64,000 nucleotides of DNA from Candidatus Heimdallarchaeota archaeon (GTDB taxonomy: Archaea > Asgardarchaeota > Heimdallarchaeia > Heimdallarchaeales > Heimdallarchaeaceae). The notes under the pieces are model-generated. The model saw only the letters and a program-made list of their open reading frames with translations, did not search any database and was not told where the DNA came from. How positions within the stretch are numbered: position 1 is the stretch's first letter; every line of letters begins with the position of its first letter. The stretch is taken from contig JAUVXV010000011.1 in assembly GCA_030603365.1 (NCBI GenBank), forward strand, positions 32,001 through 96,000, read 5' to 3'. The position numbers were made by a program, and so were the translations under genes. Of the stretch, positions 1 to 52,581 are shown one piece after another.

Positions 1-85
1 CCGTTGAAACAGAAGAGAAGTTGTATATAAGTTCAGGACTTTTTCGTCATTATCTTGGTCTGTAGTTCTCAATTTTACATCTTTT

Positions 86-177
86 AAACCTTGTTGCAAG
101 GTTGAATTCATTTTCAAAGATATACCTTCTTGTCAAGAGGACTTTCCTAAGAAGATGCCTTCACAACAAGGTTAACG
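86..177 (-). repeat. attC-like imperfect hairpin (repeat copy A plus its inverted partner)
   Basis: Minus strand reads TAAC-CTTGT-TGTGAAGG...CCTTGCA-ACAAG-GTT. AACCTTGTTG (88-97) is the exact reverse complement of CAACAAGGTT (164-173). Confidence 0.5.
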
Positions 178-357
178 TTACCAAATAATAAGAGAACGAC
201 ATGAAAAGATTAGTATTGAAGAGATTAAGCAATATTCTTAAGAGTGATAAATTTATAACAGTCACAATAAAATAAATTATTACAATTTTATTTCTCATAT
301 TTTTAGGAGTGGTAACTGCAACTCAAAGAAAGAAACCATCCTAAAATTTTCTTTTTT

Positions 358-383
358 CAAACAGTATGTAGACAACGAGGTTA
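358..383 (-). repeat. 26-bp intergenic repeat, copy B (overlaps M28 stop codon)
   Basis: caaacagtatgtagacaacgaggtta aligns without gaps to consensus AAGAAGGTATGTTGACAACAAGGTTA. Confidence 0.7.
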
Positions 384-1589
384 TATAGGTGCCATTTTGT
401 TAAATTCAATTACTGTAGCTATTGTTGTTTGAGTAACCTTCTTGATGAAATCGAAGTCTAACTTATCAATTGTATCTGCTTTTGTGTGATGATATGGAGA
501 ACGGAAATTTGCTGTATCTGTTATCATCAATGCAGGGATGTTTTCTTTCCAGAAAGGAGAATGATCTGAAAGAAGTAAATCATATAACCATTTAGCTATC
601 TTCTCGAATTTGAAAGGTATTCTTGCCCACAGATAAGGAAGCTTAATGCCTTCGTTTTTACAGTTTTTGCAGAATATCTTTCCAAGTTCCCTAGAGTTTT
701 TATCACTCACAACAGCTATAAAATCAACAATTCTTTTACGAGCTTTTACTTTGTATGATGGTAATAACAAAGGGTTCAATAAAGGAGGGAAAAACTGAGT
801 GTTTTTTCTTTTAGTAGAATAGCCAATTGTCACTAAATTAATTACTCCTTTAATTTTCTTATCCACGTCTAAAGCTTTCTTAACCCAGTAGTCACTCCCT
901 ACAAGACCAAGTTTGCCTACACTAGATGTTCTGGTAATGTGTGATCTAGTTTTTATTATATACGCTATGTATTCTTTCTCAGAATCAGTAAGATTGTCCT
1001 TAACCACTTCAAATGCTTTTTGCCACACATCTACTATTGGTTGACCCTTTGCTAGACCTAAAGTAACAGAAGAATAGAATTTCTTAAACATTTTTTGAGT
1101 ATGATAAGAGGTATAACGATGATTTTCATCAACAATTCCGAGCTCTAAAGCTTTATTTCGATCTCCTTGATCAAAAGTAGGACCTAATTCCTCTAGCGTG
1201 AAACTGATAAAACGAACATTTCCTGAAAAGTTTCTAGAAGCTAATATTCTTGCTACTTCTAGCATTGCGGCTACAGCTGAACCACTATCATTTGCCCCAG
1301 GAGAATTGAATCCAGTATCATAATGACTAGTAACCAAAATTTCAGGTTTAGAATCATCTCCCATATATCCTTCTATATTTCTAAAAACCATATCTGTACC
1401 TTCAACTTTGAAAGTTTGTTCATTTGTTTTTATACCATATTTTTTAAATTCTGAACTAATATAATCTGCTGTTTCATTCAGTTTTTGAGGATCAAAAATA
1501 TGGTGTTTAACACCTTCAATAGATAAGACATGTTGGAAAAGTTTCTCCACATCTACTTTATAAGGTATATCATTCATTTTACTTCGCAA
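381..1589 (-). CDS. M28 family metallopeptidase, paralogue with degenerate active-site residues
   Basis: SHYDT, PGAND, FTLEE, SDH and HT motifs. Close paralogue of 9720..10916 but has NLV instead of NLE. Confidence 0.85.
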   Translation of the reverse strand: MRSKMNDIPYKVDVEKLFQHVLSIEGVKHHIFDPQKLNETADYISSEFKKYGIKTNEQTFKVEGTDMVFRNIEGYMGDDSKPEILVTSHYDTGFNSPGANDSGSAVAAMLEVARILASRNFSGNVRFISFTLEELGPTFDQGDRNKALELGIVDENHRYTSYHTQKMFKKFYSSVTLGLAKGQPIVDVWQKAFEVVKDNLTDSEKEYIAYIIKTRSHITRTSSVGKLGLVGSDYWVKKALDVDKKIKGVINLVTIGYSTKRKNTQFFPPLLNPLLLPSYKVKARKRIVDFIAVVSDKNSRELGKIFCKNCKNEGIKLPYLWARIPFKFEKIAKWLYDLLLSDHSPFWKENIPALMITDTANFRSPYHHTKADTIDKLDFDFIKKVTQTTIATVIEFNKMAPI

Positions 1590-1628
1590 TCTTTAGAAAT
1601 TAAAGTTTATATACTTTTTCTAGTTTTT

Positions 1629-1654
1629 TGATAGGTAGGTTGACAATAAGGTTT
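1629..1654 (-). repeat. 26-bp intergenic repeat, copy C
   Basis: tgataggtaggttgacaataaggttt, ungapped match to consensus. Confidence 0.6.
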
Positions 1655-1701
1655 TTTCAGTACTCTAGGTTCATTATTCTAAACTTCTCTATATTGCTTG
1701 T

Positions 1702-2637
1702 TTAAAGTTTCTTTTGGACTACAGATATTACAACATTCCCCTTTTTGTGCCCTTTATCGACATACTTGTGAGCTTCGACCATTTGCTCCAAAGGATAACT
1801 TCTATCTATGAATGGTTTAATCTTCTCCTTCTCAATTAGATCTCTAAGGAAAGTCATTTTTTCTGTTGTTTCAGAAGTCATAGATTTTGCTGTAAGAAAG
1901 ATACCATTTGGTTTAAGTGCGCTTTTACATTTTTTGTCTGAAACCTTAACTACTGTTTCAAAAACAACATCATAAGTTTCACTACTTTGTGTAAAATCTT
2001 CCTTGGTGTAATCAATTATTTTATCAGCTCCTAACGATTTCACCATTTCTATTTTATCGGTACTGCATACACCAGTAACCTCAGCTCCAAAGTACTTAGC
2101 TAGTTGTACTGCATAACTACCAATACTTCCAGAAGCACCATAGATAAGAACTTTCTGTCCTTTCTGGATATTGGCTTTTCGAAGAATATGCAATGAAGCC
2201 ATACCTGCAACAGGAACTGCAGCTGCTTCTTCGTATGTTAAATTGGCAGGTTTTATTGCCACAACTCCCATCTTCCATTCTTCTGGCAGACACACATACT
2301 CTGCATAAGAACCTTGTTTCAACATAGTGGTAGTTCCAAAAATTTGATCACCTTTTTTAAACAGCTTGACATCTTTGCCTACTGATTCAACTGCTCCTGC
2401 AAACTCATAGCCTAGTATAGGTTTTCTGGGTTTTCGAATACCATACATTAACCGCAACGCGAAAGTAAAGAATTTGGAATCTGGGTGTTTACCTTTTCGT
2501 CCGTTCACAACTGCAGCGTTTACTGTTGTCCCATAAACTTTTACAAGTAGTTCATTGTCCTTGGGAGTAGGCTTCTCTATCTCTCTTAGTTCAAGAACCT
2601 CTGGTGGTCCGTATTTTTCATAAACTATTGCTTTCAT
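1702..2637 (-). CDS. NAD(P)-dependent medium-chain dehydrogenase/reductase (quinone oxidoreductase-like)
   Basis: [16 protein letters not shown]-terminus, GASGSIG nucleotide-binding motif, GHKKGNVV C-terminus. Confidence 0.9.
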
Positions 2638-2702
2638 TATTGCTTCAACTTTGTTTAAGATTTTATGTTAAAAGCCTATATGCAAATAAATACTTAATGA
2701 TT

Positions 2703-3071
2703 TCACAAGAAAAATACCGTACTTGCATAGTAGATTGTTAGAGCATTAAAGACAAAGCTTACTGTGAGCAAAAATATGTCAAAAGGCTTATACCCTTTTA
2801 TTCCAGCAAGATTAAAGAGAAGAAAGAAACTAGCTATGACGATGTTTACTATACTATTAGCAGGAAATCCCAATATCAATGAAAGAAAAACCATAACTAT
2901 TGGAATCACCATTAATACTGCTATTCCAAACCACACTATCTGACCTACTTTCTTACCTTCTATTTCTCCAGGTGTTAATTCCCCTGCAAAAATTCTTAGC
3001 ACATCACCTAACAAATAACATAACATACAAGCTACCCATAAGATTGAAAGTATTATATTTAAATCTTCCAT
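2703..3071 (-). CDS. Small 4-TM membrane protein (DUF6326-like)
   Basis: LSILWVACMLCYLLGDV motif. Start moved to ATG 3071 behind a TATA-like box; the ORF-track extension overlaps sppA. Confidence 0.7.
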   Translation of the reverse strand: MEDLNIILSILWVACMLCYLLGDVLRIFAGELTPGEIEGKKVGQIVWFGIAVLMVIPIVMVFLSLILGFPANSIVNIVIASFFLLFNLAGIKGYKPFDIFLLTVSFVFNALTIYYASTVFFL

Positions 3072-3121
3072 ATTCCAATTTGGTAGGTTAAGAAATAAAA
3101 ACTTTTGTAATTTTCTTAAAG

Positions 3122-3147
3122 AAGAAGGTATGTTGACAACAGGGTTA
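3122..3147 (-). repeat. 26-bp intergenic repeat, copy D
   Basis: aagaaggtatgttgacaacagggtta, 25/26 to consensus. Confidence 0.75.
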
Positions 3148-3184
3148 TTTTTGGAACCTTTTACAAAAAAAAAGAAAAAATAAT

Positions 3185-4882
3185 TTACTCTATTTTTATT
3201 TCCTCTGGCAACACCATCCATACATGAGTATCCAAGAAGGGTTTTATCCAATCTTCTAGTGAGAAATTTATTTTTCCATCTTTATACCAAATAGGCACAT
3301 CAGGTTTAGCTTTGTAAATGTCTACAATTCTACATCTATCAAGATTAAGTTTCGCTATTTCTGCAGCTTTTTCAAAAGCTTTCTTTATACTTCCAAGTTC
3401 ATCAACTAGACCTATTTCTTTAGCATCTTTACCAGACCACACTCTTCCTCCGCAGTATTTTACAAATTCCTTTCTATCCATTTTACGGAATTCTGCTACA
3501 TGATCTAGAAATACATCATAGATTTCGTTTATCCCTTTGAAAACTATATTTCTTTCTTCTTCTGAAAAAGGTTTTTCTGAACTATAAATTCCAGCTCTTT
3601 CTCCTCTACGTAGAAAAACTCTGTTAATCCCTTGTTTTTTAAGACTTTCTTGAGTTATGAATTTTAAGTTAATTACACCAATGGAACCTGTTAATGTCAT
3701 AGGCTGAGATACAACCCAGCTTGAAGAAGTCGCAATATAATATCCTCCTGACGCAGCTACATCGCTGAAGTATGTAACAACTGGTTTCTTCTTAACTAGT
3801 TCTTTTATTGCTGATCTCATTGCTTCAGAGGCAACTGCAGAACCTCCACCAGAATTGACATGAAAAACAACAGCTTTGACTTTTTTATCTCGCTTTGCTT
3901 TTCTAAGAAGGTGTACAATAGTTTGATCTCCTGCTTGGTCATCACCAAAAATAGGGATGGGTAGCTTAATTGGAGGTTTCTTACTTTTACCATCTATTAT
4001 TAAACCTTCAACAGATATAACTGCTATTGTATTCTTAGCTGGCTTTGGTTTAGGGATTTTAAGCTTCTTTAGGGATTTTTCCCAAGTTGTTAATACTAGT
4101 TTCTTCCTTTTAGAATATTCTTTTTTTACATATTCAATTAAATCTTCTTCACCAATTATTGTGTGAACCAATCCTTTTACCAAAGAATCTTTAGCTGTAT
4201 AAGGAGCATTATTCACTAACTCAATAATCTCTTTTTCTGATTTATCTAGAGCCAAACTAACATCTGAAACGAAAGTGTCAAAAGCAGAATCAATGATAGC
4301 TTGATATTGCTCCCTATCTTCTTTGGAAATGCTACTCTTTGAGAACATATCCCCTGCAGATTTGTAAGGAGAAATTGGAACAGCATCAACAGATAGGTCT
4401 CTTTTTGCTAAAGCATCTTTCATAAGCAAACGAGATAACTGAAGACCTATTATGTTAAGATTTCCAGCTTGTTGAAGACAAATTTCATCAGCTGCAGTTG
4501 CTACATAAAATTTAAAGAAATCATATCCGTGAGCATAGACTATAACTTTTTTTCCAGTTTTTCTAAAATCTAGAAGAAGATCTCTAAGTGATTGCGTTTT
4601 AGCTAGTCCTTCAGGTTGTTTTCTTAAGTGAATAATTATTCCTTCAAATTTAGGTAACTTGCTTAAACGATTAAAATATTCTTCAAGAAAAGCAAGAGAA
4701 AGAATTTTGGAAGGGAATAATCTTTTTTGGATGAAATTCTTACGAGGTTCAGGTCTTTCATTCAGTGGTATATCTAAATCAAGATAAATCCATCGAAGTT
4801 TTTTTGATTTAATTCCTCTATGTAGGTTTCTAATCGTCCTTATAATGGATTTAAAAGCTCTATCAATTATCATTTTAGTCAT
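3185..4882 (-). CDS. sppA: Signal peptide peptidase SppA, 67K type (S49)
   Basis: YKSAGD, NSGGGS, AASGGYYIA, TGSIGV and GRVWSG motifs in two S49 domains. Confidence 0.92.
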   Translation of the reverse strand: MTKMIIDRAFKSIIRTIRNLHRGIKSKKLRWIYLDLDIPLNERPEPRKNFIQKRLFPSKILSLAFLEEYFNRLSKLPKFEGIIIHLRKQPEGLAKTQSLRDLLLDFRKTGKKVIVYAHGYDFFKFYVATAADEICLQQAGNLNIIGLQLSRLLMKDALAKRDLSVDAVPISPYKSAGDMFSKSSISKEDREQYQAIIDSAFDTFVSDVSLALDKSEKEIIELVNNAPYTAKDSLVKGLVHTIIGEEDLIEYVKKEYSKRKKLVLTTWEKSLKKLKIPKPKPAKNTIAVISVEGLIIDGKSKKPPIKLPIPIFGDDQAGDQTIVHLLRKAKRDKKVKAVVFHVNSGGGSAVASEAMRSAIKELVKKKPVVTYFSDVAASGGYYIATSSSWVVSQPMTLTGSIGVINLKFITQESLKKQGINRVFLRRGERAGIYSSEKPFSEEERNIVFKGINEIYDVFLDHVAEFRKMDRKEFVKYCGGRVWSGKDAKEIGLVDELGSIKKAFEKAAEIAKLNLDRCRIVDIYKAKPDVPIWYKDGKINFSLEDWIKPFLDTHVWMVLPEEIKIE

Positions 4883-4989
4883 TTAGTAAAACGAATCAAT
4901 GCTTATATTTATTTCTGTGTTTAAGAAAAAAAATTGAAAATGCTAGTTTTCAGAAAAATTTAAACATACTAATTAGGATAGTGTAAATT

Positions 4990-5664
4990 ATGTTCCGTCT
5001 TAAAAGCTATGAACCTCCTCTGAGGATTCAAATCACAATCAAGAACCTGTTTATTATCATGGCGTATGTTTTGAATCTAACATTCTTCTTAGCGATTGCT
5101 TATTATCCAGAGAAATATCAATTTTTTAGTGAACACATCAGTAATCTTGGTTCTTTCGAAAGTGCGTTGGGAGCAATTAACATTATTTCTATGAGGATAA
5201 TTATTGTTGGATTTGGAATATGTTCATTACTTCTTCTAGCTGTAGCAATACTGTATTTTACTAGAAGAGATCTATATCTTTGGCATGTTAAAGGAATTCT
5301 CTCACTAATAGTTGCTTTTGGTGTAGCTTGTGATGCAATACCTTCTGATCATCCAAAGCTTTGGGTTTTACATATAATTGGTGCATCCGCATTTATTGGT
5401 GGATTTGCAGCCTTTAACGCAGTATTGCAAATTTCTAGTACGATTAAGAAACGTAAAGATAAACAAGAAGAGGTTAACAAAGTAGATACTATTTGGGATA
5501 TATTCCTTTCCATTGTTTTGATACTTTTACTAATAGGATACTTCACAATCTTTGCATTAAATCTTGACAATTTAGGGATTAGCAATCTAGACGCAATATT
5601 CCAGAAAGTTATAATCTTTGCTGAGATTCTTGCGCTATACTTTATTGATAATAAAGATGTATGA
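4990..5664 (+). CDS. Multi-pass membrane protein (DUF998/Frag1-like)
   Basis: Six hydrophobic segments, ISNLG motif, His in a TM segment, FQK near the C-terminus. Confidence 0.6.
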   Translation: MFRLKSYEPPLRIQITIKNLFIIMAYVLNLTFFLAIAYYPEKYQFFSEHISNLGSFESALGAINIISMRIIIVGFGICSLLLLAVAILYFTRRDLYLWHVKGILSLIVAFGVACDAIPSDHPKLWVLHIIGASAFIGGFAAFNAVLQISSTIKKRKDKQEEVNKVDTIWDIFLSIVLILLLIGYFTIFALNLDNLGISNLDAIFQKVIIFAEILALYFIDNKDV

Positions 5665-5744
5665 AAGATTAAATTTAGTGAACTTCTCTTTTTCTTATTT
5701 TGATAAGTACTTTAGATTTTAGAAATCAATGATTCATTAATTAT
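5612..5744 (+). repeat. ~135-bp segmental duplication, copy 1 (3' end of 4990..5664 plus intergenic DNA)
   Basis: Near-identical to 8075-8209. Confidence 0.9.
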
Positions 5745-5924
5745 ACTCAAAATACTAGTTCAAACGATATAACAATAATCATATTTATCACAATTATAAT
5801 TCTTTCAGATTGACATACAGTTGTTTGAGAAAAACTAGATTTCAGATTATATTGCTTGAAATCCTCTTTGCAGAATTTACAAAGGAAACTAGTTGTCTCG
5901 CTTTTTCTATTATATCTAGGGCAT

Positions 5925-5950
5925 AAGAAGGTATGTTAACAGCAAGGTTA
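5925..5950 (-). repeat. 26-bp intergenic repeat, copy E
   Basis: aagaaggtatgttaacagcaaggtta; followed by gttacca as in copy A. Confidence 0.75.
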
Positions 5951-5954
5951 AATG

Positions 5955-6172
5955 TTACCATATCTTGTGATGATATTGTATTGTAGCAATGGTGACTTGA
6001 GTTATCTTCTTTATGAAATCGAAATCCAATTTGTCAATAGTATCTGCTTTAGTATGATAATAGGGGTAGCGAAAGTTCGCTGTATCAGTGATCATCAAAG
6101 CAGGAATGTTTTCCCTCCAGAAAGGAGCATGATCTGAACGTAGTGTATCCATTAACCATTTAACTATTTTCT
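5955..6172 (-). pseudogene. M28 peptidase C-terminal fragment
   Basis: KWLMDTLRSDHAPFW...YYHT...; 5' end fused at the stop codon of the beta-helix gene. Confidence 0.85.
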
Positions 6173-7762
6173 CTTTCTTTTATGGAGAACTGCAACAACA
6201 AACAGAAAGAGAATAGAGACAGAAAAGAGTAGAATAGGAGAGAGAGTAGAAAACTCAGGAACAATGGCAGAAACAGTAAAGGAGTAATAGGTACCATTGT
6301 TGTCGTTAGTAGCTTCATTGTGGCTTATTGAACTATCAATAGCTGTAATATAATAATCAATAACGCTACCAACAGTGAACGGACCAATAGTTGCTTGATA
6401 AATTGATCCAGTATAAAGAGTCATAGAAATAACTAACCATCCACCACCATTAATTCGATAATGTAGAGTAACAGAATCGATACCAGAAGAGTGGCTGACT
6501 GTAGCAGAAATGGTTATAGTATCAGAATTTGTGGGGGAAGAGGGATTGTGATTGACACTTTCGATAAGTGGAGGAGTTAGAATACATTCAGAAGGATACA
6601 AATCTGAGGAATTAGCAGAACCATCAATAGAATAATGTTCGCTTCCGTTCCAATCAGACCAACAGTTGCCTTGTAATAATAATTGATCATACCATAGGTT
6701 GTAAGTTCCATCTTCAAATCCTTGTGACGTACCACCAAAATTGTTATTATAGAAAATATTTCTGTAAATAAGATTGTAAGAGGTTGAACTAAAAATGTAA
6801 ACTCCATAAGCAACATTGTCTTGTATGAAGTTTTCATTAATAACATTGAAATTGGATTGGTATAGGTGGACACCATACAAGTCGTTGTTGCTAAAATTAT
6901 TAGCACTTAAAATGTTATTATGAGAAGAATAAAGCGAGATACCATATTGGTTGTTGCTAAAATTATTAGCACTTAAAATGTTATTACCAGAATTACTAAG
7001 CAAGATACCTTCCAAGTCGTTGTAACTACAATTATTGGCACTTAAAATGTTATTACCAGAATCACCAAGCAAGATACCCTCCCTCTGGTTGTAACTACAA
7101 TTATTGGCACTTAAAATGTTATTATGAGAAGAATCAAGCGAGATACCCTTCCTCTGGTTGTAGCTACAATTATTAGCACTTAAATTGTTATTACTAGAAC
7201 CACCAAGCAAGATACCCTCATACAGGTTGTTGCTACAATTATTAGCACTTAAAATGTTATTACTAGAAAGAGAAAGCAAGATACCTACCTCGCCGTTGTT
7301 GCTACAATTATTAGCACTTAAAATGTTATTATGAGAAGAAGAAAGATAGATACCATGATTGATATTTTTTTCACATGTATTGTTTGTTATTGTTGCTGTA
7401 CCATCAGCAATATTCAAAATATAAATACCATGATCTAGTGCATTAACATAACAATTATTGATAATAAAATGTTTTGTTGTACCTGAGATTCTAATACCTA
7501 CACTGCTAGTTGTTGTAATATTGTAACCCTCAATAATATAAGGATCTCCAGGTATTCCTGAACCGAGATAAGGGCTAAATCCGCTATCATCAGTAATACT
7601 TATTGGTCCATGTGCAGTTAGAGCTGAAACGAATATTTGCGTATTATTAGAGTTTTCTTGTATATAATTAGTTGAGAGAAAAGAAACTGCGAGTACAATT
7701 ATTACTGCTACTGTTTTTGAAATTTTTAATTTACTACTTTTTACTTTTTTCACTCTCATCAT
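6164..7762 (-). CDS. Secreted NosD/parallel beta-helix protein with Ig-like domain and PEF-type C-terminal anchor
   Basis: Signal peptide, GIxL..S.NN.L..N repeats, GNCWSDW, VPEF followed by TM and KRKRK. Confidence 0.85.
   Translation of the reverse strand: MMRVKKVKSSKLKISKTVAVIIVLAVSFLSTNYIQENSNNTQIFVSALTAHGPISITDDSGFSPYLGSGIPGDPYIIEGYNITTTSSVGIRISGTTKHFIINNCYVNALDHGIYILNIADGTATITNNTCEKNINHGIYLSSSHNNILSANNCSNNGEVGILLSLSSNNILSANNCSNNLYEGILLGGSSNNNLSANNCSYNQRKGISLDSSHNNILSANNCSYNQREGILLGDSGNNILSANNCSYNDLEGILLSNSGNNILSANNFSNNQYGISLYSSHNNILSANNFSNNDLYGVHLYQSNFNVINENFIQDNVAYGVYIFSSTSYNLIYRNIFYNNNFGGTSQGFEDGTYNLWYDQLLLQGNCWSDWNGSEHYSIDGSANSSDLYPSECILTPPLIESVNHNPSSPTNSDTITISATVSHSSGIDSVTLHYRINGGGWLVISMTLYTGSIYQATIGPFTVGSVIDYYITAIDSSISHNEATNDNNGTYYSFTVSAIVPEFSTLSPILLFSVSILFLFVVAVLHKRKRK
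6872..7354 (-). repeat. Seven ~69-bp in-frame tandem repeats (23-aa beta-helix rungs)
   Basis: NNILSANN(C/F)S(N/Y)N repeated with near-identical DNA. Confidence 0.9.
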
Positions 7763-7884
7763 CTTGCTTATTTTTTAATAGTTGAAGATAAAAGATTTTA
7801 AATCTTTCTCTCTCTTATTTCTTACTGTTCACTATCTTACTCCCTCAATGTCAATCTTTTCAAGCTCTAGTTGGGTGAAATCGT

Positions 7885-8068
7885 TAGTATAAATAGAGGC
7901 TAGTTTTGTCGAAAGCTTTGTTCGACCTTGAACTTCTTAGAGAAAGAAAAGAGGAAAAACAACAAAAATTTCTTATTTCAAAGCTTTAACTACATAACCT
8001 CTTTTTTTCTTAAGAACACACATTTGAAGTCGTATTTCCTTTTCGACAAAAAATTACTATTTATACTA
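7885..8068. mobile_element. MITE-like non-coding element with imperfect terminal inverted repeats
   Basis: TAGTATAAATAG...TTTTGTCGAAA (7885-7914) versus TTTCGACAAAA...CTATTTATACTA (8041-8068); terminal TA could be the target duplication. Confidence 0.6.
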
Positions 8069-8074
8069 GCAAAT

Positions 8075-8209
8075 TAATCTTTGCTGAGATTCTTGCGCTA
8101 TACTTTATTGATAACAAAGATGTATGAAAGATTAAATTTAGGGAACTTCTCTTTTTTTCTTATTTTAATAAGTACTTTAGATTCTAGAAATCAATGAGTC
8201 ATTAATTAT
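8075..8209 (+). repeat. ~135-bp segmental duplication, copy 2
   Basis: Near-identical to 5612-5744; starts about 7 bp after the MITE end. Confidence 0.9.
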
Positions 8210-8620
8210 CAAGTTGTTTCAGCAAGTTCTATAACAGCTGCAATAGTAGCTTGAGTTATCTTCTTTATGAAATCAAAATCTAGTTTATCTATAGTATCTG
8301 CTTCAGTGTGGTAGTATGGATATCGAAAATTCGCTGTATCTGTTATCATAAGAGCTGGAATATTTTCCTTCCAGAAAGGAGCATGATCAGACCTAAGTGT
8401 ATCCATTAGCCATTTAGCTATCTTTTCGAATTTTAGAGGTAGTTTTACCCACAAATAGGGAAGCTTAATTTCTTCTTGTTTACATTTCTTGCAGAATAAT
8501 TTTCCTAGTTCCTTTGAGTTTTTATCACTAATAACTGAAATGAAATCCCCTATTCTTTTACGAGCTTTTACTTTGTAAGAAGGGAACATTCGTGGGTGCA
8601 TTAGAGGTGGTAAAGTCTGT
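8209..8620 (-). pseudogene. M28 peptidase C-terminal fragment
   Basis: LPPLMHP...RSDHAPFW...YYHT; lacks the N-terminal two-thirds. Confidence 0.85.
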
Positions 8621-8665
8621 TCTAAGCACGTTAAACGGTTGAATTAAAGGAATGCATTTTCATAG

Positions 8666-9568
8666 TTATATTCCCAGTAGTTTTTTGGCATTATTACCTA
8701 AGATTGCTTTTTTTTCCTCCTCAGTAAAAGGTTGAACACCCATTTGTTTTAAAGGCTCGGGTACATTTAGATTCTTGATTCCTTGTACCCATTCTGATTG
8801 AGATACTATATGGGTGAACAGGGGCCAATCTGAACCGAACAATATTTTCTCTATTCCGCACGTCATTCTTGCATTTTGTAACATTTGTACGAAAATTCCT
8901 GGAACATGTTTAAACACAGATTCCCAAGCAGAGATGTCTAGATACACGTTTGGATTCTTTGCTGCAACTGCAAATGCTTGATCAGTGAATGGATTACCCA
9001 TATGAGCCATGATGAAATTAATATTTGGAAAATCAACTGCTACAGTGTCAATATAGATTGGTTGACAGTATTTTAGATAAGTATACTGTGGTCCTAAACC
9101 AGTATGTGCTAGTATGGGGACGTTAAATTCTTCAACTTTCCTGTAAAAATCATAATACTCCTTAGAATCTGGATAAAATCCAGTTAATGTCCAAAATTTT
9201 ACTCCCTTGAGACCTAATTCCTCAATACATCTTTCAAGCTCTACGATAGCCTCAATACCTCTTCGAGGATCAATCCCTGCAAATCCGATAATTTTGTCAG
9301 AATAGTTCTCAACAATATCTGCAACGTAATCATTATAAACTTTAAAATCCAACTTACTTCGGTATTTCAAGTAACCATCTACAGCAAGAATCACCGTTTT
9401 ATCGATACCTGCTTCATCCATTTCTTCCACTAAACGCTCCACAGAGCCATTAAGTACAGATTGAGGATCAGGACATTTCAAATTTCTAATTATACTTTCC
9501 AACAGTTTATTGAGATCTCCATCGATGATGGTTTCATCCCATATGTGACAATGAATATCAATTATCAT
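8666..9568 (-). CDS. Amidohydrolase family 2 protein
   Basis: IIDIHCH, AHTG, MAHMG and LFGSDWP motifs. Confidence 0.9.
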   Translation of the reverse strand: MIIDIHCHIWDETIIDGDLNKLLESIIRNLKCPDPQSVLNGSVERLVEEMDEAGIDKTVILAVDGYLKYRSKLDFKVYNDYVADIVENYSDKIIGFAGIDPRRGIEAIVELERCIEELGLKGVKFWTLTGFYPDSKEYYDFYRKVEEFNVPILAHTGLGPQYTYLKYCQPIYIDTVAVDFPNINFIMAHMGNPFTDQAFAVAAKNPNVYLDISAWESVFKHVPGIFVQMLQNARMTCGIEKILFGSDWPLFTHIVSQSEWVQGIKNLNVPEPLKQMGVQPFTEEEKKAILGNNAKKLLGI

Positions 9569-9644
9569 TTTCTTTCCTCAGAATTTTCCAATTAAGATAG
9601 TACTAAAATAAATGAATGATACATTTTAAGTATTTCTCTGATTG

Positions 9645-9679
9645 GGATTAATCGTTTGATTGGATCCAAACGATCATCC
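9645..9679 (-). other. Intergenic stem-loop downstream of the M28 gene
   Basis: Minus strand GGAT-GATCGTTTG-loop-CAAACGATT-A-ATCC. Confidence 0.5.
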
Positions 9680-9719
9680 ACTCATCATTGTTGAATTTTA
9701 TAGAAGAACAATTATGATT

Positions 9720-10916
9720 TTATTTTTCTCTCTCTTCGGAAAAATCTAATACAGTTGCAATAGTTGCTTGAGTAACCTTCTTAATGAAATCAAAATCCAG
9801 TTTATCTATAGTATCTGCTTCAGTGTGGTAGTATGGATATCGAAAATTTGCTGTATCGGTTATCATCAAAGCTGGGATGTTTTCTTTCCAGAAGGGGGCA
9901 TGATCAGATCGAAGCAAATCCATCAACCATTTAGCTATCTTCTCGAATTTTAATGATATTTTAGCCCACAAATAAGGAAGTTTAATATCTTCATGTTTAC
10001 AATTTTTGCAGAACAGCTTACCAAGTTCCTTTGAATTTTTATCACTCACTACAGCTATAAAATCACCTATTCTTTTACGAGCTTTTACCTTATAAGAAGG
10101 AAACAAAATTGGATGCATTAATGGAGGTAGAAATTGAGAGTTTTTTCTTTTACTTGTATAACCAATTGTTTCTAAATTGATCACTCCTATAATCTTCTTA
10201 CCTTCTTCAACAGCTTTCTTAACCCAATAACCACTACCAACGAGACCTGTTTTTCCTATCCAAGATGTTCTTGTAAAATAAGATCTAGTTTCTATTATGT
10301 ATTCACAATATTCTTTTTCTGTATCAGTTAGATCATCCTTAATCTCTTCAAATGCTTTTTCCCAAGACTCTAGCAAAGGTTTCCCCTTAGCTAGTCTGAC
10401 ATGCACTTTGGAAGAGAATTTCTTTAGTTTTTTCTGAGTTTGATATGAAGTATATTTATAATTCTGATTGAATATTCCCAATTCCAATCCTTTATCTCTA
10501 TATTTTTGACCTAAGATGGGATCAAATTCTTCCAGTGTGAAACTGATAAACCGAACATTACCTGAAAAGTCTTCAGATGCTAATATTCTAGCTGTTTCTA
10601 GCATTGCAGCTACAGCTGAACCATTATCATTTGCTCCAGGAGCATTTCGAACGGTATCATAGTGACTAGTAACAAGAATTTCCGGTTTAGAACCATCCCC
10701 CATATAACCTTCAATATTCCGAAAAGTCATATCTATACCTTTTATCTCAAAGGATTGTTCATTTGTGTTCAGACCAAATTTTTGGAATTCTGATTTTATA
10801 TAATCTGCAGTTTCATTAAGCTTTTCAGGATTAGCATAAGGATGCTTAATTCCCTCAACAGATAAAACGTGCTGATAAAGCCTTTCGACATCGACTTTCT
10901 TTATTGCATCATTCAT
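9720..10916 (-). CDS. M28 family metallopeptidase (intact)
   Basis: SHYDT, PGANDNGS, FTLEE, NLE, RSDH and YYHT motifs. Confidence 0.92.
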   Translation of the reverse strand: MNDAIKKVDVERLYQHVLSVEGIKHPYANPEKLNETADYIKSEFQKFGLNTNEQSFEIKGIDMTFRNIEGYMGDGSKPEILVTSHYDTVRNAPGANDNGSAVAAMLETARILASEDFSGNVRFISFTLEEFDPILGQKYRDKGLELGIFNQNYKYTSYQTQKKLKKFSSKVHVRLAKGKPLLESWEKAFEEIKDDLTDTEKEYCEYIIETRSYFTRTSWIGKTGLVGSGYWVKKAVEEGKKIIGVINLETIGYTSKRKNSQFLPPLMHPILFPSYKVKARKRIGDFIAVVSDKNSKELGKLFCKNCKHEDIKLPYLWAKISLKFEKIAKWLMDLLRSDHAPFWKENIPALMITDTANFRYPYYHTEADTIDKLDFDFIKKVTQATIATVLDFSEEREK

Positions 10917-11146
10917 AAGGTTATCAATCTTTTTTCATAGCACTGTATTTATATTTTCTCCAAATATCAATAATTGTAGAAGAAGAATTATAGAATTATG
11001 TTTCTTCATTTTATACAGTATTTCTTTTTTAGGAATTCTAGAATACAAAGAAAAAGAATATCACGATATCTTCTAAAATAAAGCTTTACAGATTTTTTTC
11101 AAAACCTTTTTAATTATCAAATTAAATGTTAATATTGGTGTACTTC

Positions 11147-11710
11147 ATGAAAAAAAGATATACGTACTTATTTTTTACTTCAATATTACTAATCCTTTCT
11201 TCATCTCAGATTTTTGCTCGTTCTGCTACTATGACCAGAACTGACCCGGATGGAACTAAATGTACTATGTTTGTTGGATCAGAAGAGTTTTACATAGTTG
11301 GTACTTTATTTGAACTGGAAGTACAATTGACAGCTGATATCTTTGGAACATTATCAGGTGTTGTTATTGTAGCTTTCTATGATATAACAATAAATGTCAC
11401 AATCTTAGGGGATACATATGTTACGACACAAAATACAACTCTCCCAGATATAGATACTGAAGGTGGGAGTAGTTCAACAACTGTAACATTTAATCTATCA
11501 GATATAACAGATGATGAATTTCAAGCTAAGACGCTATTTGACTTCAAGAAAAATAATACACAAGGTGAAGATCTAGATCATGGTGGTACTCTTCTTGGAA
11601 TGAGTGGAATCAGCGTCAGAGTGGAAGAAGAAGCAAATGCTAGCAATATTGCTCCGATTCTAGCAGTTCTAAGTATCGCACTTATCTTAAAAAAGAAAAG
11701 GAAGAAATAA
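11147..11710 (+). CDS. Secreted, C-terminally anchored hypothetical protein
   Basis: Signal peptide, C-terminal TM followed by KKKRKK. Confidence 0.75.
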   Translation: MKKRYTYLFFTSILLILSSSQIFARSATMTRTDPDGTKCTMFVGSEEFYIVGTLFELEVQLTADIFGTLSGVVIVAFYDITINVTILGDTYVTTQNTTLPDIDTEGGSSSTTVTFNLSDITDDEFQAKTLFDFKKNNTQGEDLDHGGTLLGMSGISVRVEEEANASNIAPILAVLSIALILKKKRKK

Positions 11711-11939
11711 GCTAATTCTAGGTTGACATAGAGATTTGAAAAACACCAGAATTAGTATTAACTGTGATTCTTTTGGTCATTGGATATAATGAACTTCTGA
11801 CTCTTGGATAGGGAAGTAGAAACTGCAAAACTTCGTGTGACTGTTATCAAGGACATTTATATCATAGAAAATCACTACTATCACAAAATCTTACTACTGT
11901 ATAAGGGACACATTAAACCTGAAGAAACATTCAAATAAA

Positions 11940-12086
11940 CTAGAGAGGAAGGAGAATTAGGAAATGCAGCATATCAACTTTCTCTGATTTAAGTGTAGGT
12001 TTTTCGAGCTTTGCCCCACAATATGTACAAAATTTATCGTCAACTAGATTGGTTTGACCACAGTTAACACAGAATGTTAAAGACAT
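11940..12086 (-). CDS. Short or truncated zinc-ribbon protein
   Basis: FCVNCG...FCTYCGAKL; start moved to ATG 12086. Confidence 0.55.
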   Translation of the reverse strand: MSLTFCVNCGQTNLVDDKFCTYCGAKLEKPTLKSEKVDMLHFLILLPL

Positions 12087-49255: not shown

Positions 49256-50416
49256 TTGCTTGTGTCTTTGAAGAATATTGAACAAACAATACAGTTTTTT
49301 GAAAATAGTAAGAATACAATTCAAGATATATTTGATTCAGGATTTTGCAATTTTTGTGGAGCATGCATACACAGCTGTCCTGTGGATGCGATTGAATATT
49401 TAGATCCTCAAATATTAGTTAAAGAAAACTGCATCCAATGTGGAAGTTGCTTGGAACTATGCTCTCAAAATCAAGAAGTAAGGTATTCCAAACAAATGAT
49501 TAGTATTGAGAAAAATGACCAAATTAAGGATATTCATTCAAAAATTGCCGAAGTTCCTTTAGGTCGTTTCAAAGAAATCTGGAATGGTTTCTCTAGTTCT
49601 AGAAAAACGAGAAATGTAACTATGGTGGGGGGAGTTACAACTAGCCTATTGCATACTGCTTTATCAGAAAATGTAGTTGATGCAGTTCTTATTCCAGAAT
49701 TTACTGAGAAAAAACAAAATCCTAGAGGAAAGTTAATTTCAAATCCAGAAGAATTACTTCAATCAGGAGGAAGCAAATATTTACCTACTCTTTCTCTAGA
49801 TAGACTTGATGAAATTGCGAATAACCAAGATATAGATAGAATAGCAATCACAACATTACCATGTCAAGCATATGTGATTAAGAAAATGTTTCTCGATACT
49901 CAATATGAGAAACTTGTTAAAAAGATTCATCTAGTATTAACATTGTTTTGTGGGAGTGGGATTCCCTATAGAGATGATGTAGAATTCTTTCTGAAAGCCA
50001 AAGGAGTTACAGAAAGTTTATCAGAATTGAAAGTGATTCGAAGAAGAGAAAAAAGGATATGGCGAATTAATCCTCAAGACATTGAAAGATATATCTTTAT
50101 TACAAAGGATGGTAAGGAAGTAAGTATCTCATCTAGTAGAATTCTAAGATGCAAAACTAAATCTAATTGTAGTACAATTTGTCCTGATTATACAGGTTAT
50201 TTTAGTGATGTTTCAATAGGGGCATCTCACATATCTTCAAACATAATTATTGCAAGAACAGAAAAAGGAAGAAAATTAGTTAACTTGGCTATTGAAAAAG
50301 AAATTATCAAAACAAGAAATTTCTCGAAAATTAACAACTTTTTAATTAATTTCATGGGCAAAAATAAAAGGGATCTAAAAAGAAAGTCATATCAAAAATT
50401 TTTCAAAAACAAGTAA
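49256..50416 (+). CDS. Coenzyme F420 hydrogenase/dehydrogenase beta subunit-like (FrhB family) with ferredoxin domain
   Basis: CNFCGACIHSCP, GGVTT, GSKY, LPCQ, LFC and DVSIG motifs. Confidence 0.85.
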   Translation: MLVSLKNIEQTIQFFENSKNTIQDIFDSGFCNFCGACIHSCPVDAIEYLDPQILVKENCIQCGSCLELCSQNQEVRYSKQMISIEKNDQIKDIHSKIAEVPLGRFKEIWNGFSSSRKTRNVTMVGGVTTSLLHTALSENVVDAVLIPEFTEKKQNPRGKLISNPEELLQSGGSKYLPTLSLDRLDEIANNQDIDRIAITTLPCQAYVIKKMFLDTQYEKLVKKIHLVLTLFCGSGIPYRDDVEFFLKAKGVTESLSELKVIRRREKRIWRINPQDIERYIFITKDGKEVSISSSRILRCKTKSNCSTICPDYTGYFSDVSIGASHISSNIIIARTEKGRKLVNLAIEKEIIKTRNFSKINNFLINFMGKNKRDLKRKSYQKFFKNK

Positions 50417-50493
50417 GTTTAATATAACTCAATACATGTGGAATTACTAGTTTGCTAAATAGAAAAGGACTAAAAAGCTACTATTGATTTTTT

Positions 50494-51798
50494 TTAGTCC
50501 TTCTTCAAGTCTTCAGGTTTTACACTTGTTTCAGCTAGAATTTTTTCTTCTACTAGCAAAGCTAATTCAGGCTCTACACTCTTCTTATCGTGAAAAACTA
50601 GCTTAAGAAGTAGCGGTGCCATAATGACTGTCACAAAAACAAGCATGATTGCCATAGTGTAAATGTTTGAATCAAATATACCACGTTGAACACCAATTCC
50701 TGCTATTACAAGTACAATTTCAGCTCTTGGAGACGTTCCTACAGCAATTTTTAATGCAGATTTATTGCCGAAACCCATGATTCTTGAACCTGCAAAAGTC
50801 CCAATACCTTTAGAAAGTATTGCTAGAAGAATAATTAGTACCATAATAAAAGAGATTCCTCCAGAACTAAAATCAAAATTGCTTCCTACTGAAAAGAAGA
50901 ACAACGGAATGAATATCCCTTCTCCGAATTTGATTATGGGTTCTTTGATTTCTCCTATAATTAACTTATTTTGCTGCAGAGATAAGCCCAAAAGAAACGC
51001 CATAACAACTCCAGAGAAATGAAGGGCTTCTGCAAAATAATCAATCAAAACTAATAAACCAAAAACTATTCCTAAGGCAAAATAAGGCGTTTTTGCAGAA
51101 GAGAAAATATTGTAATTGTTTTCAAGAAATTTTAGAATTCTCGGTAAGATGAACATAATAACAATTATAAACAATGCTAAATATCCCAGATCTTTTAATA
51201 GAGTAATAATCCAGTTCCCTTCTTCCGGTGCAAAAAGAGCACCAGAAAGAACTAATACAAGGATTAAGGCAATAAAATCATCAAATACAGCAACAGAAAG
51301 CGTAGTCTGCCCCTCTTTTGACCCTAATTTACCTAAGGAATTTAAAGTTCTAACTGTTACACCTATACTAGTAGCTGTGAAAAGAGTACCGAAGAAAATT
51401 GCAAAAAGAATATCTTTCTTAATTAGGAAATAACCGGTTAATATTCCTCCAATCAATGCAATGGAAACCTCAATAAGTGAAATGAATAAACTATTTTTTC
51501 CAATTTTCCTTAAATCTCCGATGTTTATCTCCAAACCAACAATAAACAATAAAAGAAGAATGCCAATTTGTGAAAATTGCTCTAAAATCTCACCGTCCAT
51601 AAATGTGCTTAATACTTCACTTCCCTTATCGCCAAATAATAGGAATATAGGCCCACCAATGAGAACTCCAGCAAGTAGTTCACCTAGAATGGATGAAAGT
51701 TTTAACCTTTCGAATATTTCTCCTAAAATTCGTGCACTAAGAAGTCCGATTCCAATAAACAACAGTATGCGCAGAACTTGATCACTCATCTTCTCCAC
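50494..51798 (-). CDS. Cation:proton antiporter (CPA2/NapA-like)
   Basis: GELLAGVLIG, ATSIGVT, AVFDD and PRAE motifs. Confidence 0.9.
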   Translation of the reverse strand: MEKMSDQVLRILLFIGIGLLSARILGEIFERLKLSSILGELLAGVLIGGPIFLLFGDKGSEVLSTFMDGEILEQFSQIGILLLLFIVGLEINIGDLRKIGKNSLFISLIEVSIALIGGILTGYFLIKKDILFAIFFGTLFTATSIGVTVRTLNSLGKLGSKEGQTTLSVAVFDDFIALILVLVLSGALFAPEEGNWIITLLKDLGYLALFIIVIMFILPRILKFLENNYNIFSSAKTPYFALGIVFGLLVLIDYFAEALHFSGVVMAFLLGLSLQQNKLIIGEIKEPIIKFGEGIFIPLFFFSVGSNFDFSSGGISFIMVLIILLAILSKGIGTFAGSRIMGFGNKSALKIAVGTSPRAEIVLVIAGIGVQRGIFDSNIYTMAIMLVFVTVIMAPLLLKLVFHDKKSVEPELALLVEEKILAETSVKPEDLKKD

Positions 51799-52300
51799 GC
51801 TCGAGTTCTAAGATGAGCATTTTAGAATCAATACTAGTTTCCTTCCATATGTTTCGTACAGAAAGAATTATATCATTTATTGAGATTAGACCTTCAACAG
51901 GGTCATCTTTTGTCTTAGCTCTTGGCAAGACAGTAGATTCATATTTTGTCATACATTCAGTAACACGGGAGATTTTGTCGTCATCTACGATAATAGGCAA
52001 GTTTTGATTAGCTAAATCTCTAGCTGTAGTACTGGAAAAAGCCTTTGCTTTTGAAAGAACATTAGATATATCTGTATGAAATGTCGAAAATAGTACTACA
52101 AGGTCTTTTGGAGATATTAGTCCATAATATTTGCCTTCCTCATCTACAACTATCAGAGTTTTTGAATCCTGATGGAAAGATTCATCCAGAATAAAAAAAC
52201 AAGCAGTTGTTTCAACAATTGAAGGAACTTTGAGTATTGAAAAGTCTCCAGCTTTCATTTCTTTAATTTTGGAGATGAAAATATCAAATAAGGTTTCCAT
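51782..52300 (-). CDS. CBS-domain protein, coupled to the antiporter
   Basis: VVDEEGKYYGLISPKDL, GLISINDI. Confidence 0.8.
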   Translation of the reverse strand: METLFDIFISKIKEMKAGDFSILKVPSIVETTACFFILDESFHQDSKTLIVVDEEGKYYGLISPKDLVVLFSTFHTDISNVLSKAKAFSSTTARDLANQNLPIIVDDDKISRVTECMTKYESTVLPRAKTKDDPVEGLISINDIILSVRNIWKETSIDSKMLILELERGEDE

Positions 52301-52581
52301 ATAAAAGATTAGTTGGTAAAGAATAAATAAAGCTTACGTAACTTTAATCTAGCGTATAAAAAGATAAATAACTCTAAGTTATAGAACTATGTTTTAGTAG
52401 CAGCAACAGATTTCTCTGCTTTTAATGAGAGTACAGTTGCTTTTGGAGATGATTTGTATTCAGTAGTTATACTATTAGTTTTAGTAATTGTGTTACGAAC
52501 ACTGATACTTTAGAGATTTGTTTCCAGAACTCCAAAAAGTAAACAAAAATAAATAGAATTAGTAGAAAAAAAAGAGAAAAA

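Follow-up and report, generated by a model that had tools for sequence, protein, structure and literature searches.

The window analysed here (the whole stretch of 64,000 nucleotides of Candidatus Heimdallarchaeota archaeon, GCA_030603365.1, contig JAUVXV010000011.1, positions 32,001 to 96,000) contains five copies of a 26-mer motif, named M, that separate small gene modules. M forms the 5' portion of a ~90-nt composite element, found as a single copy in 15-16 of the 25 species of the genus. The modules adjacent to each other at this locus have different closest-relative species, and two limits of exchanged blocks lie at M. We suggest, at what we judge to be about even chances, that the element is a polar hotspot of recombination and insertion, its junctions keeping partial, co-oriented copies of M. 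The motif-bounded partition into modules, proposed in a first-pass annotation made from the sequence alone, is real and supported by the comparative data; the integron identity proposed along with it is not supported.

The host genome is metagenome-assembled and has 3.65 Mb in 17 contigs, the window lying on contig C12. Its GTDB genus has 25 species, and the comparison set included the 24 other species plus 16 genomes from other families of the order (relatives' genomes are labelled G001, G002 and so on). A repeat search in the window recovered one family of exactly five copies, all on the minus strand and 69-100% identical to copy D, at the positions and in the single orientation described before. 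Copy A together with its "inverted partner" is a full element, and copies B to E are M-only:

Full composite element (type 1), 86-174, minus strand: M from 174 to 149, hairpin box, H arm from 142 to 124, AT-rich spacer, and palindrome P (AACCTTGCAACAAGGTT) from 103 to 87; alignable to its single-copy counterparts in 10 other species.
Copy A, 149-174, minus strand: the M part of the full element at 86-174.
Copy B, 358-383, minus strand: M-only, the most decayed (73% identical to D); the M28 gene (open reading frame, ORF, 381-1589, minus strand) stops at its TAA, as previously noticed.
Copy C, 1629-1654, minus strand: M-only, the M28 start codon following 52 nt downstream; here the M28 block common with G011 has its 5' limit.
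Copy D, 3122-3147, minus strand: M-only, 37 nt past the sppA stop and 50 nt ahead of the DUF6326 start; the 98% block of G013 ends at 3122, the 3' end of M.
Copy E, 5925-5950, minus strand: M-only, directly behind an M28 3' fragment; resembles the full element up to nt 29 (...CTTATG), with no co-oriented gene after it.

In the host genome, M is confined to one 6-kb locus. The consensus 26-mer, with up to 6 mismatches allowed, has 5 sites in the whole 3.65 Mb, 4 of them at this locus, copy C being more diverged. In a position weight matrix scan of the whole genome the five copies reach 28-38 bits and the next best site 18 bits; since the matrix was trained on the same five copies that it scores, the stronger and independent support is the conservation of M in other species. 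The genome-wide search, which the first-pass annotation had proposed, therefore shows that M is not scattered, and this contradicts a genome-wide regulon motif. Its observation that B to E lie just downstream of minus-strand genes was reproduced, with distances of 0-47 nt from the ORFs. B and E are not independent copies, since both close a duplicated M28 3' segment (411-605 and 5979-6173, 79% identical). The flanks of A, C and D are mutually unrelated.

The sequence of the element is TAACCTTGTTGTCAAC-nn-ACCTTCTT-ATGAAAGTCCTC-TTGACAAGAAGGT, followed by ~20 variable AT-rich nt and AACCTTG-N3-CAAGGTT, corresponding to M, a conserved hairpin box, a variable spacer and the palindrome. By inspection, it contains two inverted repeats, one between M and H (13-nt arms, 23 nt apart) and the other within P (7-nt arms, 3 nt apart). 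With up to 3 mismatches, M is present in 12 of the 24 other species of the genus and in none of the 16 genomes from other families. A search with the central box found the element in 15 of the 24 other genomes, essentially one per genome. A genus-wide search with a 16-mer at 2 mismatches was no better than its control, and its hits were used only at 0-1 mismatches. When 11 species are aligned, there is hardly any variation in the first ~56 nt or in the palindrome, and the spacer and both flanks are unalignable. As a single strand, the element folds better than its shuffles, as a hairpin within a hairpin (z = -3.4 to -4.6), and among the window copies only A folds. Only 1 of 23 predicted pairs changes on both sides; it is the sequence that is conserved, and covariation is almost absent. 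The Rfam scan of window positions 1-6500 gave no match to any RNA family, and ARAGORN found no tRNA or tmRNA gene in positions 1-12000.

A paralogous element (type 2), with the palindrome first and then the box ACCTTATTATGAAAGTCATC, was found elsewhere in the host genome:

Type-2 element, contig C1, ~607,560-607,640 (L052:7547-7640), minus strand: palindrome AACCTTGCGGTAAGGTT and then a degenerate hairpin box; neighbours are an M20 peptidase gene on one side and, on the other, a conserved gene of 116-153 aa.

This site is syntenic in at least 5 genomes of the genus, the host included. By eye, a TATA-like box precedes the element start by ~24 nt in the type-2 copies, and a C-to-A / G-to-T change in the stem is not consistently compensated. 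A metagenome scan for further copies gave only one more type-2 element and three chance matches in coding sequence. The 153-aa neighbour was considered as a candidate binding factor and set aside, having no Pfam or PDB match and a predicted alpha-solenoid structure (pLDDT, the predicted local distance difference test, of 84) with no informative fold match. Both elements of the host (window 109-159 and L052:7547-7597) lack the ATG of the conserved box, type 1 having AGG (2 box changes) and type 2 ACATAG, where nearly all other species have ATGA(A/T)AG. Given this lost ATG, the element system may be decaying in the host lineage.

We found 11 M-only copies in five genomes: four in the host (B to E), two each in G003, G011 and G007, and one in G005. 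Each of the 11 precedes the full element on its 5' side, in the same orientation, and they are spaced 0.2-3.4 kb. The first-pass annotation had given copy A an inverted partner, which corresponds to H at 124-142 and the palindrome at 87-103, and had seen weak or no right halves in B to E, where we could not detect any. No remnants of H, P or the box were found within 100 nt of B to E or of the 7 M-only copies of relatives (all p > 0.19), and there is no similarity past nt ~28, which led us to reject the M-only copies as decayed full elements. M-only copies cease to resemble the full element at nt ~15 in the solute-binding-protein modules, at nt ~21 in the M28 modules, and at nt 26-29 in D, E and both G003 copies. 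Most of these breaks cluster in the hairpin loop, around CTT/ATG. Within a genome, variant bases are common to the M copies (CAT in B, D and E of the host; CCC in all three G003 copies), which suggests that the resident element gave rise to them or that they were homogenised with it.

The cargo of the arrays is unrelated, including M28 peptidases, family-5 solute-binding proteins, NosD-like beta-helix proteins, flavodoxin, zinc-ribbon proteins and others. The gene beside the full element differs on both sides in almost every species and the genes 2-5 kb downstream are syntenic in several, therefore only the content of the locus varies and its place does not. The full element of G003 is flanked by convergent genes, and that of G020 is antisense to the genes on either side. 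The element of G016 is interrupted by an insert of 1.8 kb bounded by two copies of the H segment (contigs C144 and C200, loci L022 and L023, overlapping at the element). This insert encodes a 334-aa AAA_15/AAA_21 ATPase, whose best PADLOC matches are NsnB, AriA, AbiLi and GajA-type ATPases, and a 159-aa unannotated protein; it may be a defence cassette.

The intervals of the window hold the genes listed for them by the first-pass annotation (M28; DUF6326 plus MDR; SppA plus a membrane gene):

175-357, minus strand: B-to-A interval, a 209-nt interval with a single 45-codon ORF.
381-1628, minus strand: M28 peptidase module, gene 381-1577 plus promoter region; 95% nucleotide identity to G011 and 91% to G017.
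1655-3121, minus strand: DUF6326 and MDR module, DUF6326 at 2703-3071 and MDR zinc-dehydrogenase at 1702-2637; best matches 82-83% (G001, G003).
3122-4939, minus strand: SppA (S49 peptidase) block, ~57 nt of promoter, gene 3185-4882, 37 nt, and M; 98% to G013 and 97% to G018.
4990-5664, plus strand: membrane protein gene, inside the E-D interval on the opposite strand; 91% to G023 and ~72% to other species.

The B-to-A interval looks like an empty or eroded module, in which no M28 remnant was found. Modules have 0.2-3.4 kb, the largest being of 2.8-3.4 kb, and most of their genes are co-oriented, one being on the opposite strand. Terminal inverted repeats above the shuffled control were absent from the 11 modules tested.

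Ordinary syntenic DNA of the host is mostly 65-83% identical to G013, G011, G017, G018 and G023, with the exception of one highly conserved stretch that is ~90% identical to three of these five species at once. This stretch (window ~49,300-52,400) is 88-92% identical to G013, G018 and G023 in surroundings of 65-77%, and could be a very conserved gene or another exchanged block. Against this baseline, the remaining sppA orthologues of the genus are 71-72% identical to that of the host. The two species closest in M28 are both among the more distant ones, and the other M28 genes do not exceed 77%. Since sppA, M28, the membrane gene and DUF6326-MDR match different species best, adjacent modules differ in their closest relatives. 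The G013 contig is itself mosaic, its other genes being 72-77% identical to the host.

Two of the block limits coincide with M. The 98% sppA block stops at the last base of copy D, beyond which G013 has the rest of the full element and the window has the DUF6326 promoter. In other words, what follows this sppA flank in G013 is directly the full element, and in the window it is copy D and then ~3 kb of other modules. Copy C is where the 95% M28 block begins. G018 has M28, M, ~130 nt and sppA in this order, so that sppA is downstream of an M there too. Relatives thus show presence or absence of modules and differing neighbours exactly at M, as expected if the copies of M are module boundaries. 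Since M is not scattered and modules swap at M, the "new recombination-site array" also offered by the first-pass annotation fits better than a genome-wide operator.

M is the first 15-29 nt of a genus-specific element of ~90 nt, and we suggest that this element serves as the hotspot. Modules formed by a promoter and one to three genes would be joined at M, which is probably the site of strand exchange, and each junction would keep a co-oriented partial M; the locus would therefore read M-module-M-module-...-M-hairpin-palindrome. The joining could be carried out by a trans-acting recombinase on the hairpin and palindrome, or by host recombination anchored on a short conserved sequence. Considering the variable end-points of M and that no enzyme was found, a dedicated recombinase and short-homology recombination are both possible. 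A more specific and more doubtful proposal, which we make only tentatively, is a gene-capture platform of Heimdallarchaeota not yet described, in which a ~90-nt landing pad (half-site, hairpin box and palindrome) and an enzyme other than IntI would insert promoter-bearing modules in fixed polarity, to be traded between species. No description of this element was found in our literature searches.

Several observations weigh against a hotspot. There is no recombinase, transposase or Cas1 near any array. The variable end-points of M and the H-bounded insert of G016 do not look like one precise crossover, and the type-2 paralogue keeps a stable syntenic place with no array. Some block limits are away from M: that of sppA on the 5' side is in the promoter, that of M28 on the 3' side is within the conserved 3' end of the gene, and the membrane gene has neither of its limits at M. 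In addition, 9 of the 11 M-only copies are 73-116 nt upstream of a co-oriented start codon, as a regulatory site also would be, and the comparison genomes are all fragmented, incomplete metagenome-assembled genomes (MAGs).

The search for enzymes was extended to the whole host genome. The tyrosine recombinase domain PF00589 has one match, on contig C11, and none on C12, in agreement with the first-pass annotation, which saw no integrase in the window. It has no match on the array contigs of the genus, and 12 of the 24 other genomes, which are incomplete MAGs, have no match at all. Serine recombinases number five in the host genome and TnpB genes 18, with ~10 kb to the closest TnpB. The Y1 HUH transposase TnpA (PF01797) has no match in the host genome, nor does Cas1 above the cut-off.

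Integrons and clusters of attC sites lacking integrases (CALINs) have been reported in ~8% of Asgard genomes (Ghaly et al. 2022, PMC9668308), and the locus resembles them in its polar, co-oriented small modules, in a recurring site into which stop codons run (copy B and other genomes), in a distinctive terminal site by the array, as attI would be, and in modules with independent horizontal histories; one copy also forms a hairpin. However, the internal sites are half sites of 15-29 nt without a second arm, their consensus is unrelated to R''/R', the modules are larger (up to 2.8-3.4 kb) and appear to bear their own promoters, and the complete site is at the 3' end of the array and not by an integrase gene. 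The R''-L''...L'-R' boxes of a canonical integron were not found at B to E or at the M-only copies of relatives, with no IntI nearby. Even copy A departs from RYYYAAC...GTTRRRY, with the heptamer CGTTAAC, the 3' end GTTTAAA and strongly asymmetric spacers, and the elements of other species fail likewise. A degenerate attC array that has lost its integrase, as the first-pass annotation proposed, is thus hardly credible to us.

Other known systems were compared. Tandem islands at tRNA or tmRNA genes, including integrase-less cis-mobilisable elements, also have a single-copy target that is intact at one end and co-oriented partial copies that part the inserts. Here, unlike in those islands, the target is not a tRNA or an Rfam RNA, the inserts have 0.2-3.4 kb with no integrase, and it is the 5' end of the element that is repeated; with no tRNA or tmRNA gene by ARAGORN and no Rfam match, this explanation was rejected. 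The pdif modules of Acinetobacter plasmids and the integrative mobile elements exploiting Xer (IMEX) are similar in being recombinase-less, with short sites on which a host enzyme would have to act. However, pdif sites are 11-6-11 Xer sites of alternating orientation and those described here are direct repeats, in a genus where many genomes are without a tyrosine recombinase. A 28-bp Xer/dif or pdif site was also discarded by inspection, since the layout of the inverted arms differs from 11-6-11 and the M-only copies have no inverted repeat. Integration of the casposon or CRISPR type (no Cas1 match, no terminal inverted repeats) and elements of the IS200/IS605 type (no Y1 transposase in the genome) were rejected as well. 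The aloposons of Heimdallarchaeum (PMC8813620), with giant genes and tRNA targets, are unrelated.

An upstream operator is the main rival. The glycolytic motif of Thermococcales, bound by TrmB-family regulators, is an archaeal example, and like M it is short, partly palindromic and upstream of the promoters of functionally related genes. Accordingly, M could be the upstream site for a local transcription factor of a peptide-degradation cluster, with the palindrome AACCTTG-N3-CAAGGTT as the full operator. The conserved M would then double as a short homology anchor, with block limits at M as a side effect. A palindrome of the 7-3-7 kind is typical of dimer sites; helix-turn-helix genes (ArsR-like, HxlR) are found 1.7-2.5 kb away in the host genome; the cargo is rich in peptidases (M28, S49, M29, C45-like) and includes the family-5 solute-binding protein; and an M20 peptidase precedes the type-2 element. 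The position of the 9 M-only copies before start codons also speaks in favour, as they are ahead of B recognition element (BRE)/TATA-like stretches seen by eye ~25-35 nt before the start codon of each module. However, the distance from M to the TATA-like box varies by eye from ~25 to ~88 nt, copy E has no gene to regulate, and the placements of the full element in G003 (convergent genes) and G020 (antisense to both neighbours) also weigh against an operator, which does not explain the strict polarity relative to the full element either. The Thermococcales motif is regulon-wide and non-polar, whereas M is at a single locus, co-oriented, and decays where gene and promoter persist. The G017 orthologue of M28 has a decayed M upstream, and other M28 genes (G002, G008, G003) have similar promoters with no M or a decayed one. 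The M-only copies also evolve faster than the promoters next to them, copy C and its G011 counterpart being ~80% identical and the adjoining promoter and leader ~94%. Being less conserved than these promoters fits scars, and we infer that the M-only copies are junction scars and not working sites. In its local form, the operator alternative of the first-pass annotation is thus weakened by the orthologous promoters without M and keeps the upstream-of-start positions in its favour, and we regard it as unlikely.

We consider still less probable that the element is a small RNA gene or a structured 3' untranslated region, the M-only copies being duplicated 5' fragments, similar to the partial tDNA repeats left by a trans-acting integrase. 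Apart from the fold described above, this would be consistent with several substitutions that are G-U compatible on this strand, one outer pair changed on both sides in two species, the TATA-like box of type 2, and the same GGTTCCAAA flank seen by eye before M in G013, G003 and copy D. However, the lack of an Rfam or tRNA match, the scarce covariation, the uncompensated stem change of type 2, the many copies that abut a stop codon without a promoter of their own, and the lack of an integrase argue against it. It is very improbable that the copies are role-less relics of segmental duplication in a region rich in paralogues. B and E do belong to the duplicated M28 3' segment, and M28 fragments, 133-bp repeats and MDR paralogues abound in the region; on the other side, A, C and D have unrelated flanks, M bounds unrelated genes in five genomes, and the element is conserved where its flanks cannot be aligned.

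The neighbourhood of the array is repetitive. A segment of 133 nt, formed by the 3' end of the membrane gene and spacer, is repeated at 95% identity (5612-5744 and 8075-8209). Upstream there are two M28 3' fragments (5955-6152 and 8209-8601) and a second full M28 paralogue (9720-10916). The C-terminal tails of M28 diverge after the conserved 3' segment, in the same place where the 95% M28 block ends. Between 6164 and 7762, a NosD/beta-helix gene with a CBM_56 match contains six to seven tandem repeats of 69 nt (6879-7423), 69-100% identical. To the left of the window, from 4 to 19 kb of contig C12 (partly in locus L001), MDR zinc-dehydrogenase paralogues and fragments are dense, 68-82% identical to the MDR gene of the window, with no M between them. 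A family of 170-194-aa proteins with a signal peptide, a C-terminal anchor ending in KKRKK and no Pfam match recurs on the opposite strand near arrays in five genomes (L012, L021, L022, L051 and window 11126-11710). The idea of a replication origin at the locus was dropped, as the GC skew of the contig was uninformative.

It is still an open question how the Asgard archaea, which are the closest known relatives of eukaryotes, acquire and reshuffle their genes. The locus described here is a sequence-defined place where unrelated accessory genes pass between species that are otherwise only ~70% identical. Peptidases, oxidoreductases and a solute-binding protein are among the exchanged genes, as is a defence-type ATPase in one species, and the junctions coincide with a short site that is conserved. 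Should the element be the substrate of an enzyme, this would be a new recombination system; if not, the locus illustrates how gene exchange between species can be organised by a short conserved sequence. Should the gene-capture platform prove true, it would be a functional analogue of integrons with different sites and chemistry.

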